A stretch of DNA of 20,000 bases from Dehalococcoidia bacterium (GTDB taxonomy: Bacteria > Chloroflexota > Dehalococcoidia > DSTF01 > RBG-16-68-14). The DNA is taken from positions 44,835 through 64,834 of the forward strand of contig JBBEBM010000067.1 in assembly GCA_040882355.1 (NCBI GenBank), given 5' to 3'. The translations under genes were made by a program, and so were the position numbers. Position 1 is the first letter of the stretch, and every line of letters starts with the position of its first letter. This document shows positions 11,106 to 16,699 of this stretch, piece after piece. The notes beneath the pieces are model-generated. The model had not been told where the DNA came from, ran no database searches, and saw only the letters and a program-made list of their open reading frames with translations.

Positions 11106-12374
11106 CTAACGAACGGGTAGCCCCGGCGCCGGGAACGACCCGCAGAGCTCCCGTACTTCCTCCTGCACCCTCCGGGCGACGTCCTCGTCGTTGGGCGCGG
11201 CGATGACTTCGTCCATCCATGCCGCGATCCGGCGCATCTCGCCCTCCTTCATCCCGCGCGACGTGACCGCGGGCGTGCCGAGCCGGATGCCGCTGGGGTT
11301 GAAGGGTTTGCGGGAATCGTTCGGGATCGCGTTCTTGTTGCAGACGATGCCCGCCCGGTCGAGCGCCTCGGCGGCCTTCTTGCCAAAGACGCCCTTGCTG
11401 GTCAGGTCGATCAGGACGAGGTGGTTGTCGGTGCCGCCGGAGATGAGCGCGAAGCCGCGCTCCAGCAGCTCGCCGGCCAGGGCCTTCGCGTTGCGCACCA
11501 CCTGCTGCGCGTACGCGCGGAACTCGTCCGTCGCCGCTTCGTGCAGGGCGACGCCGATGGCCGCTGTGGTGTGGTTGTGAGGCCCGCCCTGGAGCGCGGG
11601 GAACACCGCCCGGTCAACGGCGGCGGCGTGCTCCTCACGGCAGAGGACCATCGCGCCGCGAGGGCCCCGCAGCGTCTTGTGCGTCGTCGTGGTGACGGCG
11701 TCCGCGTGGGGCACCGGGTCCGGATGGACGCCCGCGACGATCAGGCCCGCGATGTGCGAGACGTCGGCGAGCAGATAGGCGTCCACCTCCCGCGCGATCT
11801 CGCCGAACGCCTGAAAGTCGATCTCGCGCGGGTACGCCGTCGCGCCGCACACGATGATCTTCGGGCGCTCCTTGCGCGCGATCTCGCGCATAAGGTCGTA
11901 ATCGATGAGATGCGTCTCCGGATGAACGCCGTACGCGATCGCGCGGTAGAAGCGCGCCGAGAAGTTGACGTTGGCGCCGTGGGTGAGGTGGCCGCCGTCG
12001 GGCAGGCCCATGCCCAGGATCGTCTCGCCGGGCTGGAGGAGCGCGTAGTAGACGGCCATGTTCGCAGGCGAGCCTGAGTACGGCTGGACGTTCGCGTGTT
12101 CCGCGCCGAAGAGCTGCTTCGCCCGTTCCTGCACCAACGTCTCCAGCCGGTCGACGTTGCGCTGACCCTCGTAGTAGCGCTTGCCCGGGTAGCCTTCCGA
12201 GTACTTGTTGGCGAAGACCGAGGCCGTCGCCTGCAGCACAGCAGCCGAAGCGTAGTTCTCCGACGGGATCAGCCGGACCGACTCCGCCTGATAGCGCTCT
12301 TCGTCCTCGATGAGCTGCGCTATCTCCGGGTCGGTCTTCGCCAGGGCCAGCCTGCTCTGCTCAAGCTCCAGCAT
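11106..12374 (-). CDS. glyA: Serine hydroxymethyltransferase
   Basis: LIPSENY, NKYSEGYPGKRYY, GGHLTHG, TTTTHKTLRGPRG and SGIRLGTPA motifs. Confidence 0.98.
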   Translation of the reverse strand: MLELEQSRLALAKTDPEIAQLIEDEERYQAESVRLIPSENYASAAVLQATASVFANKYSEGYPGKRYYEGQRNVDRLETLVQERAKQLFGAEHANVQPYSGSPANMAVYYALLQPGETILGMGLPDGGHLTHGANVNFSARFYRAIAYGVHPETHLIDYDLMREIARKERPKIIVCGATAYPREIDFQAFGEIAREVDAYLLADVSHIAGLIVAGVHPDPVPHADAVTTTTHKTLRGPRGAMVLCREEHAAAVDRAVFPALQGGPHNHTTAAIGVALHEAATDEFRAYAQQVVRNAKALAGELLERGFALISGGTDNHLVLIDLTSKGVFGKKAAEALDRAGIVCNKNAIPNDSRKPFNPSGIRLGTPAVTSRGMKEGEMRRIAAWMDEVIAAPNDEDVARRVQEEVRELCGSFPAPGLPVR

Positions 12375-12396
12375 GGTGCGCTCCTTCCTGCCCTAG

Positions 12397-12433
12397 AATA
12401 ACGAATGAGCCACGTCCCGGGCGGGCGTGGCTC
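12397..12433 (-). terminator. Leader hairpin/attenuator terminator upstream of glyA
   Basis: GAGCCACG-CCC-gccc-GGG-a-CGTGGCTC stem followed by ATTCGTTATT, an imperfect U tail. Confidence 0.55.
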
Positions 12434-12459
12434 GCGATGCGCGCGCAGTCGCTCCGCCC

Positions 12460-12510
12460 TTACTCTGGACGGTACATTCCTCCGATGGCGATGATGCGGA
12501 TACGGTGCAC
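12460..12510 (-). CDS. Putative glyA leader peptide MHRIRIIAIGGMYRPE
   Basis: GAGGTG SD, GTG start, 16 codons and TAA stop; 4 Ile codons and tandem GGA GGA. It lies between the promoter and the terminator hairpin. Confidence 0.55.
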   Translation of the reverse strand: MHRIRIIAIGGMYRPE

Positions 12511-12531
12511 GCGGTCACCTCTTGCGGAGGC

Positions 12532-12561
12532 AGTCTAACGAAGGGCCGAACGCGCTGTCAA
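12532..12561 (-). promoter_or_regulatory. sigma70-type promoter of the glyA leader
   Basis: TTGACA-N18-TAGACT on the minus strand. Confidence 0.65.
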
Positions 12562-12596
12562 TCCGTCTGATCGAGCGGTAGTGGGTCAGTTTGAAG

Positions 12597-12625
12597 TTGA
12601 CGATGCTTGAGCGGCCTGCTACCGT
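12597..12625 (+). promoter_or_regulatory. Leaderless-type promoter for the small basic protein
   Basis: TTGACG-N17-TACCGT, with ATG 12632 six nt downstream. Confidence 0.55.
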
Positions 12626-12631
12626 CGAGGT

Positions 12632-12850
12632 ATGACGAAGCGCTCCAAGAAGCCCGCCGACGTGAATGCGCTGGCCGCGTCCATCGTGGCTGAGGCGACG
12701 GACGAGGCGGAGCCTGAGCCAGTCAGCCAGCATGCAGAGGCGGGGCGGCTAGGCGGGTTGAAAGGCGGCAAGGCCAGGGCTAAGAAGTTGAGCGCGCAGA
12801 GGCGTTCCGAGATCGCGAAGAAGGCCGCTGCGGCCCGCTGGCGGCGTTAG
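12632..12850 (+). CDS. Small basic KGG-motif protein (IS passenger)
   Basis: KPADVNALAASIV...GRLGGLKGGKARAKKLS..RRSEIAKKAAAARW. I recognise this type as commonly adjacent to such transposases. Confidence 0.8.
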   Translation: MTKRSKKPADVNALAASIVAEATDEAEPEPVSQHAEAGRLGGLKGGKARAKKLSAQRRSEIAKKAAAARWRR

Positions 12851-13157
12851 TGATCGTGCTCGATGGGTCCGGACCGAGCGAAATCTCGCCTATATCCCGT
12901 TCGTAGTCTTGAACCTTCTCCGAGAGTATCTTGGCGAGCGCCTTTGCATGCTGCGGCGATAGTTGAATTCTGCAAATCTCGTGCATCTCAGGTGTGCCCT
13001 TGGCACCGATTCCAATCTGCCCAAGAAGCAGCGTCACATCGAACACCGCAGTCAGAATTCGAATCTGATTGGGGGCATAGGTTGGAGCTTCGGGATTCCC
13101 AATCAAGTCTGGCATCTTGAATTCTTCCTGCTGCGCGGCTCCACGACGTGTCGCCAT
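12780..13157 (-). CDS. DUF3467-like protein
   Basis: Strong AAGGAGGT SD. Pattern Y..N.....FD..L.LGQ....CRIQLSPQHAKALAKILSEKVQDYERDIGEI resembles the DUF3467 SPxHAK..L...YE..GEI signature. Confidence 0.7.
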   Translation of the reverse strand: MATRRGAAQQEEFKMPDLIGNPEAPTYAPNQIRILTAVFDVTLLLGQIGIGAKGTPEMHEICRIQLSPQHAKALAKILSEKVQDYERDIGEISLGPDPSSTITNAASGPQRPSSRSRNASARSTS

Positions 13158-13162
13158 TTGCC

Positions 13163-13711
13163 CTACCTCCTTCCAACCGAGGCCATCTTCATTGGCGTCG
13201 GCGGCCTAGTCTCACCGGTCGCACTCGGCGTCCGGCGACTCGCGTAGTCAGCCAGATAAGTCACGTCTGGTTCAAAGCCCTTTCCCAACCGAAGCTGGCC
13301 TTCGGCCGTGGCGCTGCGCTTGGGCGTCGGCCTATCCTCCGCCTGCATTTTCTTCAAAGCGGTGTCACGCTCGTATCGTGGCACCGATATGTCGATAGCG
13401 CTCATGCGGTCATGAAATTCTGCCAGCCTGCTGAACGGTTCAAAGCGAATTGCCAGAGATACGTCGAATGCGTCCGCAAGCCTCTCTAGCGTCGCCACGC
13501 TGTAGTTTGCGTATCCCGCGAGGTACTTCGAGATGAGGGGTTGCTTGAATTCGGCATGGCGTGCAAGGTCAGTCTGAGACCAACCTTCATGCTCCATCAT
13601 GATTCTGAGCTGAGTCGAGACAATATTACCGATGTCGGCGTGTCGTAGCGCTCGACGAAATTCGAGGCTGTCTAGATTCCTGGCAAGCTCGGCCCGCGTA
13701 CTACTCGACAT
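13163..13711 (-). CDS. Xre/HigA-like HTH antitoxin with long C-terminal tail
   Basis: LRIMMEHEGWSQTDLARHAEFKQPLISKYL..YSVATLERLADAFD is an Xre HTH. ATG 13711 overlaps the toxin gene end; a TTG at 13717 is an alternative start. Confidence 0.82.
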   Translation of the reverse strand: MSSSTRAELARNLDSLEFRRALRHADIGNIVSTQLRIMMEHEGWSQTDLARHAEFKQPLISKYLAGYANYSVATLERLADAFDVSLAIRFEPFSRLAEFHDRMSAIDISVPRYERDTALKKMQAEDRPTPKRSATAEGQLRLGKGFEPDVTYLADYASRRTPSATGETRPPTPMKMASVGRR

Positions 13712-14105
13712 GGGCAACCACCTTGGCTTCTCCTGTAACGATTAGCCTCCTCCTTTCAAGGGCAAGCTCCATGCCTTCCTTCATAGGCGCGTCGGTATCA
13801 TGAATCCAGCCAGCGAGGAAGATGTACGTACCCCTTGCCGTCCCCCGGCAGGCACCAAGCCTATACCTGAGTTTCCTCCGGCCGGGACGCGGCGCAAATG
13901 AGACCTTGAATTCGTGAAGCCCGCGATACCTCCCCCGGAGCGCTTGATACCCGGCTTGGTCTCGCCAGCGGCGTATGGCCAGGTTCTCAAGAAGGCTGAG
14001 CAGGGCGACGAACGAACCGCGAACCCCACCTCCCTGCCCCTGAAGCCACTGCTGTACAACGTTGGTGCCGTCAATCTCACAATCCTTGAACGTCGCGTAC
14101 GCCAC
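13701..14105 (-). CDS. RelE/HigB (Gp49-like) family toxin
   Basis: NVVQQWL..., LRGRYRGLHEFKV...YRL...YIFLAG pattern, in the toxin-before-HTH order typical of higBA. Confidence 0.65.
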   Translation of the reverse strand: MAYATFKDCEIDGTNVVQQWLQGQGGGVRGSFVALLSLLENLAIRRWRDQAGYQALRGRYRGLHEFKVSFAPRPGRRKLRYRLGACRGTARGTYIFLAGWIHDTDAPMKEGMELALERRRLIVTGEAKVVAHVE

Positions 14106-14181
14106 AGCCTATCACATTTTCCTTATTCGTGCCCGGCGGTGAGTGCTATAATGTTTTTCTGATATTGGCTCGCCGAAACCC

Positions 14182-14210
14182 TTGACACAAGAGGTGCGGT
14201 CAAGCATAAT
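14182..14210 (+). promoter_or_regulatory. Transposase promoter (leaderless)
   Basis: TTGACA-N17-CATAAT with ATG 14218 seven nt downstream. It overlaps the inverted repeat CTTGAC-N12-GTCAAG. A second TGcTATAAT lies at 14144-14152. Confidence 0.7.
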
Positions 14211-14217
14211 GGACAGT

Positions 14218-15069
14218 ATGAACAGGCTCAGTCCAGAACGTCGGGCACAGGTGATTCGGGCGCTAGTCGAGGGGAATTCGATTCGCTCCACCTGTCGCAT
14301 GACCGGCGCTGCCAAGGGCACCGTCCTCAAGCTCCTAGCCGACATAGGCGAGGTCTGCCGCGCATACCAGGACGCTCACATGAAGAACCTCTACGCTCGC
14401 CGCGTCCAGTGTGACGAAATCTGGAGCTTCTGTCACGCGAAGGCCAAGAACGTGCCTGAGGAGCACACGGGCGAGTTCGGCTATGGCGACGTGTGGACGT
14501 GGACGGCCATCGACGCCGACTCCAAGCTCGTGCTGTCCTGGGCCATCGGCGGGCGGGACAGCTACACGGCCCTGGCCTTCATGCAGGACGTAGCCCGCCG
14601 TCTGGCGCAACGTGTCCAGCTAACGACGGACGGCCACAAGGTCTACCTAGACGCCGTTGAGCGGGCCTTCGGCTCGAACATCGACTACGCCATGCTGGTG
14701 AAGGTCTACGGTGGTGGTGAGGAGCCTGAGAAGCGCTACAGCCCGGCAACGTGCGTGGGTGCGAACCCCCAGCCTATTCAGGGAAACCCGGACCCAAAGC
14801 ACGTCAGCACGAGCTACGTTGAGCGGCAGAACCTCACCATGCGAATGAGCATGCGCCGGTTCACCCGGCTAACCAACGCCTTCTCCAAGAAGGTTCAGAA
14901 CCTTGGCCACGCCGTAGCGCTCCACTTCATGTCCTACAACTTCTGCCGCCGTCACCAGACACTCGGCATGTCGCCCGCGATGGCAGCGGGCATCGAGGAT
15001 CACGAGTGGACGGTCGATGAGCTTGTGGCGCTGCTCGAAGCGAGCGAGAATCAGGACGGGTCAAACTGA
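14218..15069 (+). CDS. IS1-family DDE transposase (283 aa)
   Basis: N-terminal HTH (LVEGNSIRSTCRMTG); catalytic-type motifs QCDEIW, TTDG and TSYVERQNLTMR. The stop codon lies inside the right TIR. Confidence 0.9.
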   Translation: MNRLSPERRAQVIRALVEGNSIRSTCRMTGAAKGTVLKLLADIGEVCRAYQDAHMKNLYARRVQCDEIWSFCHAKAKNVPEEHTGEFGYGDVWTWTAIDADSKLVLSWAIGGRDSYTALAFMQDVARRLAQRVQLTTDGHKVYLDAVERAFGSNIDYAMLVKVYGGGEEPEKRYSPATCVGANPQPIQGNPDPKHVSTSYVERQNLTMRMSMRRFTRLTNAFSKKVQNLGHAVALHFMSYNFCRRHQTLGMSPAMAAGIEDHEWTVDELVALLEASENQDGSN

Positions 15070-15073
15070 CCCA

Positions 15074-16699
15074 CTACCGGTCGAGCGTATCCGTGCGCTC
15101 ATACAGCAGGAAGAGGCCGTTATCGAGCACGGGGGTATACCCGTCCTCGATGAACCCGCTGAGGGCCGGGAAGTCGTCGCGGAGATACTCGTCCGAGGTC
15201 TGGGTCGTGCCGGTGAGCCAGGGCTGGTTGTCACCCCTGGCGACGGCGAAGAAGCGTGGCGGCGTGGCCTCGAGGTCTTCCATCAGCTCGTCGCGCCACG
15301 ACTGCGGCGACCAGGTCGCGCGCAGGCCCGAGTTGACGATGAAGGGGCTGACGAGCGGGCGGTCCAGCCAGAAGTAGGTCTGCGGCCAGACCCCCCAGAC
15401 GAAGAGCAGGTCATCGTCGTCGCCGCGCTCGCGCGCGTAGTCGACGATCTCATGGTTCGGCGCGTAGAGCGGGTAGTAGTGCGCCTCCACGTCGCGGCGG
15501 CTCAGCGATCCGTCCGCGTAGCTGCCCAACGCGCGATAGTCGTCGTAGGTGTCGAGCAGCGGCTGGAAGGCGAGGACGGCCAGGCCGCCGGCCAGCAGCG
15601 CAGCGGCGCCCCATGCCTGCGCGCGCGGCAGCGGCTGGAACAGCGATACGGACTCGTCGATGGCGTAGCCGGCGAGGAGCGCGAGCGGCGGGAGCGTGGC
15701 CAGCCAGTGGTAGTGAAACATCTTCCCCTGCCACCAGACACCCCCCAGCGCCAGCAGCGCGAGCAGCGCGAGCAGGAAGGCGCCTCGCGCTTTCGCGGGG
15801 CGGTAGGCGGCGAAGAAGAGGGCGGCCCCGGCGGGCACGACGATGAACGCCACGTCTCTGGTCCAGGCGGCCGTGCTGACCAGAAGGAACCGTGCGTGCG
15901 ATCCCTCGGCGCCGCCCCAGCGGAACGCGTTGTACGGCCCCGTATAGTTGCGCTGGACATCGATGAAGTCGTCCAGGACACCGCCGCCGGCCATGTAGGC
16001 GAGCAGCGCGACCGGCACGACCAGGAAGCCAGCAGCCGTGATCGCCAGGCGCCGCGCGCGCCCCCGCAGCGTCCAGCCTTCGGCGCGCCAGAGCAGCTCC
16101 GCCGCCGGCAGGCCCAGGACGAAGAGGACGGCCGTGGTCTTCAGGGCAAACGCGACACCGAGCAGGGCCCCCGCCGAGAACGCCCGCAATGCCACGCGGC
16201 CCCCGTCGCCGCTTCGAGGGTAGAGGAAGAAGGCGAACGCGAGCGGCGCCGCCATGAAGCTCTCCGTCTCGCCCAGGTCCGCGGGCGCCGTCCACGCGAG
16301 ATAGGCGAAGGCGTAGATAGCCGCGGCGAAGACGCCTGCGCGTTCAGAGAAGTAGCGCCGGCCCAAGAAGAACACGCCGGCCATCGCGATGGCGACGTTG
16401 ATCAGGTCCATGACGCGCACCGCCTCCATGTGCTCGCCCGCCAGCGCGAATGGAACGGCGTACAGGAGGTAGATCAACGGCGACTTCTGGTCCCAGAAGT
16501 CGCGGTAGAGCTGGTCGCCGTCCAGGATGGTGCGGGCGCCGAGCGCGAACCAGACCTGATCGGTCGCGAAGGGAATGATCAGGGTGGGGAGACCCAACAC
16601 GAGAAGGAGGGCCAGGCCCGAGAGCGCGTAGACGAGCCAGCGCGGCAGCTCGCGCACGCCTTCCGTGGTCGCCGCCCAGGCGCGAGAGAGCGTCCTCAT
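15074..16699 (-). CDS. GT-C (ArnT/PMT-like) polytopic membrane glycosyltransferase
   Basis: Many TM segments; DQ..F...ARTILDG..LYRDFWDQKSP motif in the first loop; ETE, ALKT and FHYH motifs. Confidence 0.78.
   Translation of the reverse strand: MRTLSRAWAATTEGVRELPRWLVYALSGLALLLVLGLPTLIIPFATDQVWFALGARTILDGDQLYRDFWDQKSPLIYLLYAVPFALAGEHMEAVRVMDLINVAIAMAGVFFLGRRYFSERAGVFAAAIYAFAYLAWTAPADLGETESFMAAPLAFAFFLYPRSGDGGRVALRAFSAGALLGVAFALKTTAVLFVLGLPAAELLWRAEGWTLRGRARRLAITAAGFLVVPVALLAYMAGGGVLDDFIDVQRNYTGPYNAFRWGGAEGSHARFLLVSTAAWTRDVAFIVVPAGAALFFAAYRPAKARGAFLLALLALLALGGVWWQGKMFHYHWLATLPPLALLAGYAIDESVSLFQPLPRAQAWGAAALLAGGLAVLAFQPLLDTYDDYRALGSYADGSLSRRDVEAHYYPLYAPNHEIVDYARERGDDDDLLFVWGVWPQTYFWLDRPLVSPFIVNSGLRATWSPQSWRDELMEDLEATPPRFFAVARGDNQPWLTGTTQTSDEYLRDDFPALSGFIEDGYTPVLDNGLFLLYERTDTLDR

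Follow-up and report, generated by a model that had tools for sequence, protein, structure and literature searches.

Can the SecB-like chaperone of a toxin-antitoxin-chaperone (TAC) system be replaced by a protein of another family? This question is raised by three tightly coupled minus-strand genes on a 20,000-nt stretch of DNA from a Dehalococcoidia bacterium (GenBank assembly GCA_040882355.1, contig JBBEBM010000067.1, positions 44,835 to 64,834), the whole of which is hereafter called the window. A first-pass annotation had described the trio as a RelE/HigB-like toxin, an Xre-type helix-turn-helix (HTH) antitoxin with a long tail, and a DUF3467-like third gene in the layout of TAC. We followed up this proposal by computational comparison. 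The results are consistent with a TAC-like tripartite module that has DUF3467 in place of the SecB-like partner and is carried on an IS1-family element, a reading that we put at about an even chance. The analogy with TAC rests on comparative evidence and not on layout alone, because the trio recurs in other genomes, the length of the antitoxin tail is linked to a third gene, and one related locus (L094) has a SecB-like gene at this position.

The recurrence of the trio was examined in 54 loci from species-representative genomes, anchored on a conserved antitoxin motif (alignment A5). Open reading frames (ORFs) in these loci start at the first start codon after a stop, and some N-termini are thus overestimated. 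The toxin gene was located directly upstream of the antitoxin gene in 44 of the 54 loci, and a DUF3467 ORF directly downstream of it in 19. All 19 downstream ORFs were matched by PF11950 (E 7e-14 to 0.075), 11 above the cut-off and 8 below. By record title, these trios belong to Acidobacteriota (12), Gammaproteobacteria (5), Thermodesulfovibrionales (1) and Spirochaetales (1); one more trio was found at locus L152 of genome G401. Chance does not account for an arrangement that 19 of 54 independent loci share. The order of toxin, antitoxin and third gene, claimed for the window by analogy with TAC, was the same in these 19 further loci, and the proposal does not fail for want of recurrence, as the triplet is present in four other phyla.

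DUF3467 was not the sole occupant of the slot behind this antitoxin. Other loci carried an unnamed family of ~220 aa (12 loci), an unnamed helical family of ~140 aa (8 loci), neither with a Pfam match, DUF6941 (2 loci) or a 149-aa SecB-like protein (1 locus, L094); there was no third gene in 7 loci, and 5 could not be assigned (one contig end, four distant HTH matches). At most loci, only a few bases separate the antitoxin stop from the third-gene start, or the two overlap. When profiles were compared, DUF3467 showed no relation to either the ~220-aa or the ~140-aa family (probability ≤0.3), and an Atlas search with the ~220-aa protein gave no named family. For the third protein of L094, a PDB sequence search ranked the SecB-like chaperone Rv1957 first (E 0.027), with the C-terminal PYIRE motif as the aligned part, and the Atlas model of the protein gave TM 0.68/0.72 to a SecB cluster. 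Because PF02556 gave no match to this protein at E≤0.1, nor at E≤1 in the genome scan, and the assignment is based on the PDB and Atlas matches, we call it SecB-like with moderate confidence. On the antitoxin-core tree the third-gene label was scattered, with at least 17 changes in all, and at least 5 changes of the DUF3467 label were forced by well-supported branches. One clade with SH-aLRT support of 99 contained L085, L089 and L110 (all with DUF3467), L092 (~220-aa family) and L094 (SecB-like); thus near-identical toxin-antitoxin (TA) pairs carry either DUF3467 or a SecB-like gene in the same slot. The third slot is interchangeable, and DUF3467 is one of at least five unrelated families that fill it. 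Genome G401 (Bryobacteraceae) has two paralogous modules of this TA family, L094 with the SecB-like third gene and L152 with DUF3467.

The middle gene had been described as an Xre-HTH protein with a ~65-aa P/T/R/S-rich tail including FEPDVTYLADY, and this description was borne out. Pfam HTH_31/HTH_3 matched antitoxin residues 35-89 (13451-13615), while the PDB profile matches, HipB and HigA2, covered the HTH alone; ~95 more residues follow. Residues 91-118 form a post-HTH segment (RFxPFS...VPxY/FxxD/E) that is conserved in relatives, and residues 119-184 (13166-13363) form a tail of 66 aa that is P/T/R/S-rich, of low complexity and probably disordered, with FEPDVTYLADY at residues 148-158. Common to the antitoxin family are the HTH and a segment of ~30 residues (RFAPFSELVDW...LAVPSFxEE); the tails are of low complexity and hypervariable, to the extent that sister tails are unalignable. 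The window antitoxin itself is located on a very long branch (2.27) of the antitoxin tree.

Tail length, counted from the PFS motif to the stop codon, was at least 65 aa in 42 of the 43 loci with any third gene (median 89), whereas the 7 loci that lack one had tails of 44-59 aa throughout (median 52). The difference gave p = 3e-5 in a one-sided Mann-Whitney test uncorrected for kinship, the 7 loci representing ~4 lineages, all of which branch from within long-tailed groups of the antitoxin tree. The sole short-tail exception, L105, has a tail of 33 aa and a 192-nt gap (L105:3339-3531) before DUF3467, and its tail may be frameshifted or truncated. Antitoxins of the ~140-aa class had in common a C-terminal ending of the E-x-x-[HYF]-A type (E-L/F/Y-x-H/Y/F-A). 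This class consists of L087 (reclassified), L097, L099, L101, L102, L106, L114 and L120, with endings such as KELEHA, KEYSHA, KELVYA and EFAHAA, and its ending was the only class-specific tail feature found. Similarity between tails did not rise above noise, whether within or between third-gene classes (means 22.9 vs 21.0), and tail charge and aromatic content gave no pattern by third-gene class. A complex prediction for two copies of DUF3467 (residues 12-100) with antitoxin residues 91-184 was run without controls and scored 0.00, which is no verdict and counts neither for nor against binding.

We next turn to the toxin. Its own sequence gave no Pfam match at E≤1 and none in NCBIfam or PADLOC, and the label RelE/HigB-like therefore needed evidence from family and fold; a direct PDB sequence search gave spurious low-complexity matches only. 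Among 1.84 billion representative proteins, searched exhaustively with HMMER, the toxin had only 11 matches besides itself at E≤1e-3, of which 9 were small full-length proteins of 125-144 aa. PF05973 (Gp49) matched 7 of the 10 aligned family members, with a best E of 3.4e-6. The AF2 model of the toxin (pLDDT 93.2) has a long C-terminal helix at residues 105-124, and Foldseek ranks 1-6 for this model were all HigB chains (TM 0.56-0.67, probability 0.99-1.00, E 0.03-0.06), the best being Streptococcus pneumoniae HigB (6af4/6af3) and HigB1, the mycobacterial TAC toxin (7nbu/7awk). The Gp49 matches of the family and the HigB matches of the fold uphold the RelE/HigB-like label, and the fold check that had been proposed found a RelE-type fold with a long C-terminal helix. 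When the toxin profile was aligned to HigB1, a weak match (E 1.2), window residues E65, K67, R82 and H102 corresponded to E66, R68, R77 and K95, which are named as catalytic-pocket residues in the accessible text of PMC9098466. All members of the toxin family keep E65 and R82; position 102 is occupied by His, Lys or Arg. We read the toxin, from its relatives and its predicted fold, as a divergent HigB/Gp49-type member of the RelE/ParE superfamily, in which case it would be expected to act as an RNase.

The third protein was matched by PF11950 above the cut-off (32.4 bits against 25; 32.8 bits in the genome scan), and the DUF3467-like label was thus confirmed. No other Pfam family matched it at E≤1, PF02556 (SecB) included, and its description as non-SecB holds at the level of sequence families. 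The core spans approximately residues 30-90 (Pfam match 32-93, 12879-13064). In the AF2 model, built from 50 sequences (mean pLDDT 80.5), the ends are disordered and ~60 residues are folded into strands 31-36, 41-50 and 56-66 and a long helix 68-89. Comparison of this model with PC4 by Foldseek gave a probability of 0.96-0.97 and TM by target of 0.50-0.51, with the phage T5 PC4 homologue among the matches. The cores of TA-linked DUF3467 proteins were mildly acidic (median pI 5.6; 0 of 23 above 7.1). The DNA-binding domain of PC4 is basic. The S/R-rich C-terminal ~20 aa of the window protein are absent from three close relatives of 109-110 aa (P0003-P0005). A direct PDB sequence search with DUF3467 gave spurious low-complexity matches only, a pattern scan of the genome contigs for its subfamily gave 61 pattern matches and no relative, and antitoxin-DUF3467 fusions or other long DUF3467 forms were found in 0 of 8000 scored candidates (weak evidence according to the tool). 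Five apparent DUF3467 relatives on metagenome contigs were rejected as off-frame matches inside a membrane-channel gene. PADLOC had no defence-system model for the toxin or DUF3467, and only generic HTH models for the antitoxin.

DUF3467 was also surveyed in the phylum of the host. PF11950 was present in 70 of 401 sampled Chloroflexota genomes, a count that covers the genome of the window and one unpublished genome, G038, which enters no other result; in one Chloroflexota family it was present in all 24 sampled genomes. The 50 further Chloroflexota loci with DUF3467 that were examined gave a single weak match to the window toxin or antitoxin (L048, E 1.5e-4) and otherwise no homologue of either. 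Two good relatives in the phylum were recovered with the toxin profile, one in genome G363 and one in G105, and a homologous antitoxin gene lies behind both; the third gene in G105 encodes a helical protein of ~140 aa and not DUF3467. Other toxin types were found beside weaker-scoring Chloroflexota DUF3467 genes, namely ParE (L041, weakly L047), PIN (L036) and NYN (L039, L043). The order was DUF3467, a 99-aa gene and PIN in L036; DUF3467, a 96-aa gene and ParE in L041; and DUF3467, an 81-aa gene and a weak ParE-like gene in L047. In L039 and L043, NYN is directly upstream of DUF3467 with a 4-nt overlap. L038 and L040 have in common a trio of DUF3467, a 129-aa protein and a 104-115-aa protein, the latter two without a family, and radC was located directly downstream of DUF3467 in L033, L034 and L037. 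At a separate locus, L145, DUF3467 adjoins a long ORF that, from its start, may encode a GAF-type adaptor.

Within the window, the ORF list contains the three minus-strand genes at the positions first assigned to them, and base-by-base reading reproduced the reported 11-nt overlap, 5-nt gap and Shine-Dalgarno sequence. The toxin stop TAG (13703-13701) overlaps the antitoxin by 11 nt if counted from the ATG at 13711 and by 17 nt if counted from the TTG. Between the antitoxin stop TAG (13165-13163) and the DUF3467 ATG at 13157 there is a gap of 5 nt (GGCAA), and the sequence GGAAGGAGG, with its GGAGG site, is located at 13174-13166, 8 nt upstream of this ATG. All five ORFs of the element are intact, with coupling signals present. 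A simple sigma-70 scan of the region between toxin and transposase (14106-14181) found no minus-strand promoter, and an Rfam search of 12300-15300 found no family. Palindromes of 18-23 nt were observed between transposase and toxin in three other loci (L119:2548-2601, L095:2526-2579, L093:2508-2568) and are candidate operators of the Xre antitoxin; no equivalent was reported in 14106-14181 of the window.

Table 1. Features of the element in the window
Feature	Position	Strand	Remarks
Left terminal inverted repeat	12571-12594		core GGTAGTGGGTCAGTTTGA at 12577-12594
Small basic protein	12632-12850	+	72 aa; GGLKGGKARA...ARW motif; convergent with the trio
Third gene, DUF3467	12780-13157	minus	125 aa; ATG at 13157
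Antitoxin	13163-13717	minus	184 aa from TTG; ATG at 13711
Toxin	13701-14105	minus	134 aa; GTG start; from the ORF list
Toxin-transposase divergent intergenic region	14106-14181		presumed trio promoter/operator, by position only
IS1-family transposase	14182-15069	+	295 aa from TTG; start likely near 14209 as judged from relatives
Right terminal inverted repeat	15061-15084		core 15061-15078

The element occupies 12571-15084 (~2.5 kb) and has five genes: the small basic protein, the trio and a divergent transposase. The G+C content is 55-60% in 12850-15100, compared with 65-73% in the flanks. The arms of the inverted repeat are 24 nt long, 96% complementary and have GGTAGTG-type ends. The 8 nt outside the 18-nt cores, GATCGAGC (12569-12576) and GGTCGAGC (15079-15086), match at 7 of 8 positions and may be a target-site duplication. 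The stop codon of a 541-aa membrane-protein ORF (15074-16699, minus strand) is located inside the right inverted repeat; the original end of this gene may have been replaced when the element inserted. The transposase was matched by Pfam DDE_Tnp_IS1 just above the cut-off (24.8 bits against 24.1) and by NCBIfam transpos_IS1 below it (62.7 bits against 100); it is 55-60% identical to plasmid genes, and three of the four best are annotated as 'IS1 family transposase'. The small basic gene, without a Pfam or NCBIfam match, overlaps the 3' end of DUF3467 by 71 nt (12780-12850). Homologues in the same convergent position were found in L121, L114, L113, L102/L059 and L088 and in a second element of the same genome; it is a recurrent end-gene of the element family.

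In the 54 loci, transposase homologues were divergent from the toxin in 13, and homologues of the small basic gene were convergent downstream in 5. Repeats of the GGTAGTG type bracketed transposase, toxin, antitoxin and third gene in 5 of the 9 other loci examined: L102 (~140 aa), L110 and L089 (DUF3467), and L135 and L095 (~220 aa). On these borders the trio is passenger cargo of a predicted IS1-family transposable element. The second element of the host genome (G000 contig C42, L158:300-3648) has an identical 17-nt repeat core, and at the DNA level its transposase is 75% and its small basic gene 70% identical to those of the window; no clean target-site duplication was seen for this copy. 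Its cargo is a fusion of Xre-HTH with an M78/IrrE-type peptidase, a 159-aa protein without a family, and a weak DUF6941-like ORF. Transposases 55-60% identical to that of the window adjoin similar HTH cargo on plasmids of Alphaproteobacteria. The element family therefore seems to be a conserved frame with exchangeable cargo. In four plasmid copies, L141-L144 (CP050295.1, NZ_CP041717.1, NZ_CP011481.1, NZ_CP136863.1), the transposase is accompanied by a 370-395-aa HTH protein and a hypothetical protein of ~150-160 aa. On a Mesorhizobium plasmid the convergent gene at the small-basic position is annotated as 'histone H1'; a Shedu nuclease gene adjoins one plasmid copy, and a RES/Xre pair another. 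IS1-family elements with passenger genes presumably form the subgroup labelled ISMhu11 or 'transporter IS'; 'ISMhu11' is absent from the searchable literature.

If the module works in the manner of TAC, the toxin would be an mRNA endonuclease of the HigB/Gp49 type, probably ribosome-dependent, as suggested by its fold and family, and the conserved post-HTH segment of the antitoxin would probably hold it. The long hypervariable tail would make the antitoxin dependent on the third protein. By analogy with SecB-type chaperones, DUF3467 would most likely bind or shield this tail and stabilize the antitoxin, keeping the toxin silent. Release of the toxin would follow if DUF3467 were diverted or lost, be it through stress, a phage protein or disappearance of the element. 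Tail binding, antitoxin stabilization and trigger are all inferred here by that analogy.

Several observations weigh against this TAC-like reading. The trio was found in 0 of 400 other sampled Chloroflexota genomes, and the subfamily of the window DUF3467 has only 3 close relatives, all on short contigs. Canonical DUF3467 genes in the phylum are located between ssb and a translin-like gene (L005-L029), or before radC, a context that suggests nucleic-acid metabolism and a housekeeping role for the main DUF3467 branch. The fold matches of DUF3467 were weak, namely COMM, Pur-alpha and PC4/Sub1 (Foldseek E≥0.07; Z≤4.1, the range rated by the fold-search tool as common chance arrangements), and no SecB chain was present among its Foldseek or VIA-align rows, an absence from the list that does not exclude the fold. 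DUF3467 is thus not a recognizable relative of SecB, and its predicted fold alone does not give its function. Tail length had been expected to go with DUF3467 in particular. It did go with the presence of a third gene, as described above, but the difference between DUF3467 loci and all others (median 95 vs 78) was not significant (p = 0.08); the signal follows 'third gene present' and not 'DUF3467 present'. Tails of the DUF3467 class also have no shared class-specific motif. The simple scan gave neither a promoter nor a terminator for a trio operon. Finally, since elements of this family are also found with cargo of quite another kind, the third gene might be carried independently.

More broadly, we consider it possible, though on balance somewhat doubtful, that chaperone addiction is not restricted to SecB, and that DUF3467, the ~220-aa and ~140-aa families and DUF6941 are interchangeable tail-recognizing partners of one HigB-type antitoxin family. 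Tail and partner would then be swapped as a unit between IS1-family transposons, with the partner as stabilizer and possibly as sensor of infection.

Two other accounts of the third gene were weighed against the TAC-like reading, both of which we judge unlikely. In one, DUF3467 is a small nucleic-acid binder resembling PC4 or Pur-alpha, which would serve as co-repressor of the operon, as modulator or second neutralizer of the toxin, or as helper of transposition, and would not act on the tail. The best though weak matches of its fold are indeed binders of single-stranded DNA or RNA (PC4, Pur-alpha, Sub1 and the T5 PC4 homologue); but the scores stay at the level of chance arrangements, COMM domains, which are protein-protein modules, score equally, and the TA-linked cores are neutral to acidic. 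The constant presence of DUF3467 in one Chloroflexota family (24 of 24 genomes), with ssb/translin-like or radC neighbours, and its position beside the RNase-type domains NYN and PIN also agree with such a role, which nevertheless leaves unexplained the link between tail length and third gene and the sharing of a slot with a SecB-like protein. In the other account, to which we give a similarly low probability, the third gene is an unrelated swappable passenger, and the real system is a two-gene HigB-like/Xre pair that stabilizes the IS1-family element. This would accommodate a slot with at least five unrelated families, the 7 loci without any third gene, the at least 17 label changes on the antitoxin tree, and the quite different cargo of the C42 copy and the plasmids. 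It accords less well with the close junctions, since third genes abut or overlap the antitoxin stop in most loci, and with a tail length that tracks third-gene presence and, in the ~140-aa class, a tail ending specific to the class. Moreover, the trio persists without the element, as the retrieved flanks of 12 of the 19 DUF3467 trios lack a transposase homologue, and DUF3467 accompanies other TA families too.

It is quite improbable, in our estimate, that the module is simply inactive or decaying, an inactive toxin on a defunct insertion sequence whose reading frames are kept by recency alone. The window toxin matches no curated model and has His at the position of HigB1 K95, the antitoxin branch is very long, the simple scan found no promoter, and the copies of the possible target-site duplication differ at 1 of 8 positions. 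On the other hand, the five ORFs are intact with coupling signals, the inverted repeats have kept 96% complementarity, the Glu, Arg and His/Lys/Arg positions are kept across the toxin family, and the toxin model is very confident (pLDDT 93).

The finding of wider interest is that one antitoxin family pairs with a SecB-like protein or with any of four unrelated small proteins. Should these partners bind the tails, the addiction principle would be general and would define a broader 'toxin-antitoxin-X' class, and the natural swaps among L085, L089, L110, L092 and L094 would be a ready-made specificity experiment. For DUF3467 the reading, if true, would provide a first, testable role. Carriage on the predicted IS1-family elements indicates a route by which the module spreads between phyla. 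In the searchable literature, 'PF11950' and 'IPR021857' were not found and 'DUF3467' was found in an unrelated context only. TAC is described there with SecB-like chaperones only, the supplementary tables of two TA surveys (PMC10440598, PMC11980606), which may list DUF3467 neighbours, being outside this scope; the third component is SecB-like in the accessible parts of 10.1101/2024.02.24.581848, PMC10440598, PMC11980606, PMC9098466, PMC5105189, PMC6377645 and PMC3581621.

Compared with known systems, the DUF3467 core has the same order of secondary structures as PC4, Pur-alpha and COMM units, but the scores are weak, the sequences are unrelated, and members linked to TA genes are acidic and not basic. 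The window toxin resembles Gp49/HigB toxins (PF05973) in fold, family neighbourhood and toxin-first order, the gene order listed for PF_gp49 in the accessible text of PMC11980606; it differs from them in falling below every curated model, in having only 9 small full-length relatives, and in the change of K95 to His. Like IS1-family insertion sequences, the element has a single-ORF IS1-type DDE transposase, terminal inverted repeats and a possible 8-bp duplication, but unlike them it carries a three-gene TA module and a small basic protein; in this element family the cargo differs between copies, two related ones being present in one genome, while the ends are alike. The closest comparison is with TAC. 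According to the portion available of 10.1101/2024.02.24.581848, TAC systems are phage-defence switches with the chaperone as sensor, and the chaperone-addiction tail (ChAD) of E. coli HigBAC is long and disordered, varies more than any other part of HigA and is read via spaced aromatic residues. The third protein of the window differs from the TAC chaperone in being DUF3467 with no PF02556 match, and its chaperone dependence is putative, as are an aggregation-prone tail and phage sensing; the window module is carried by an IS1-family element, whereas the E. coli systems are prophage-encoded, as stated in the same portion of that source. In common with M. tuberculosis HigB1-HigA1-Rv1957 and E. 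coli HigBAC and CmdTAC, the window has the order of toxin, antitoxin and third gene, a Gp49/HigB-type toxin with a long C-terminal helix (the HigB-TAC helix in the accessible text of PMC9098466), and an HTH antitoxin with a long, variable and probably disordered C-terminal extension, and its sister element L094 shares with them even the SecB-like third gene.

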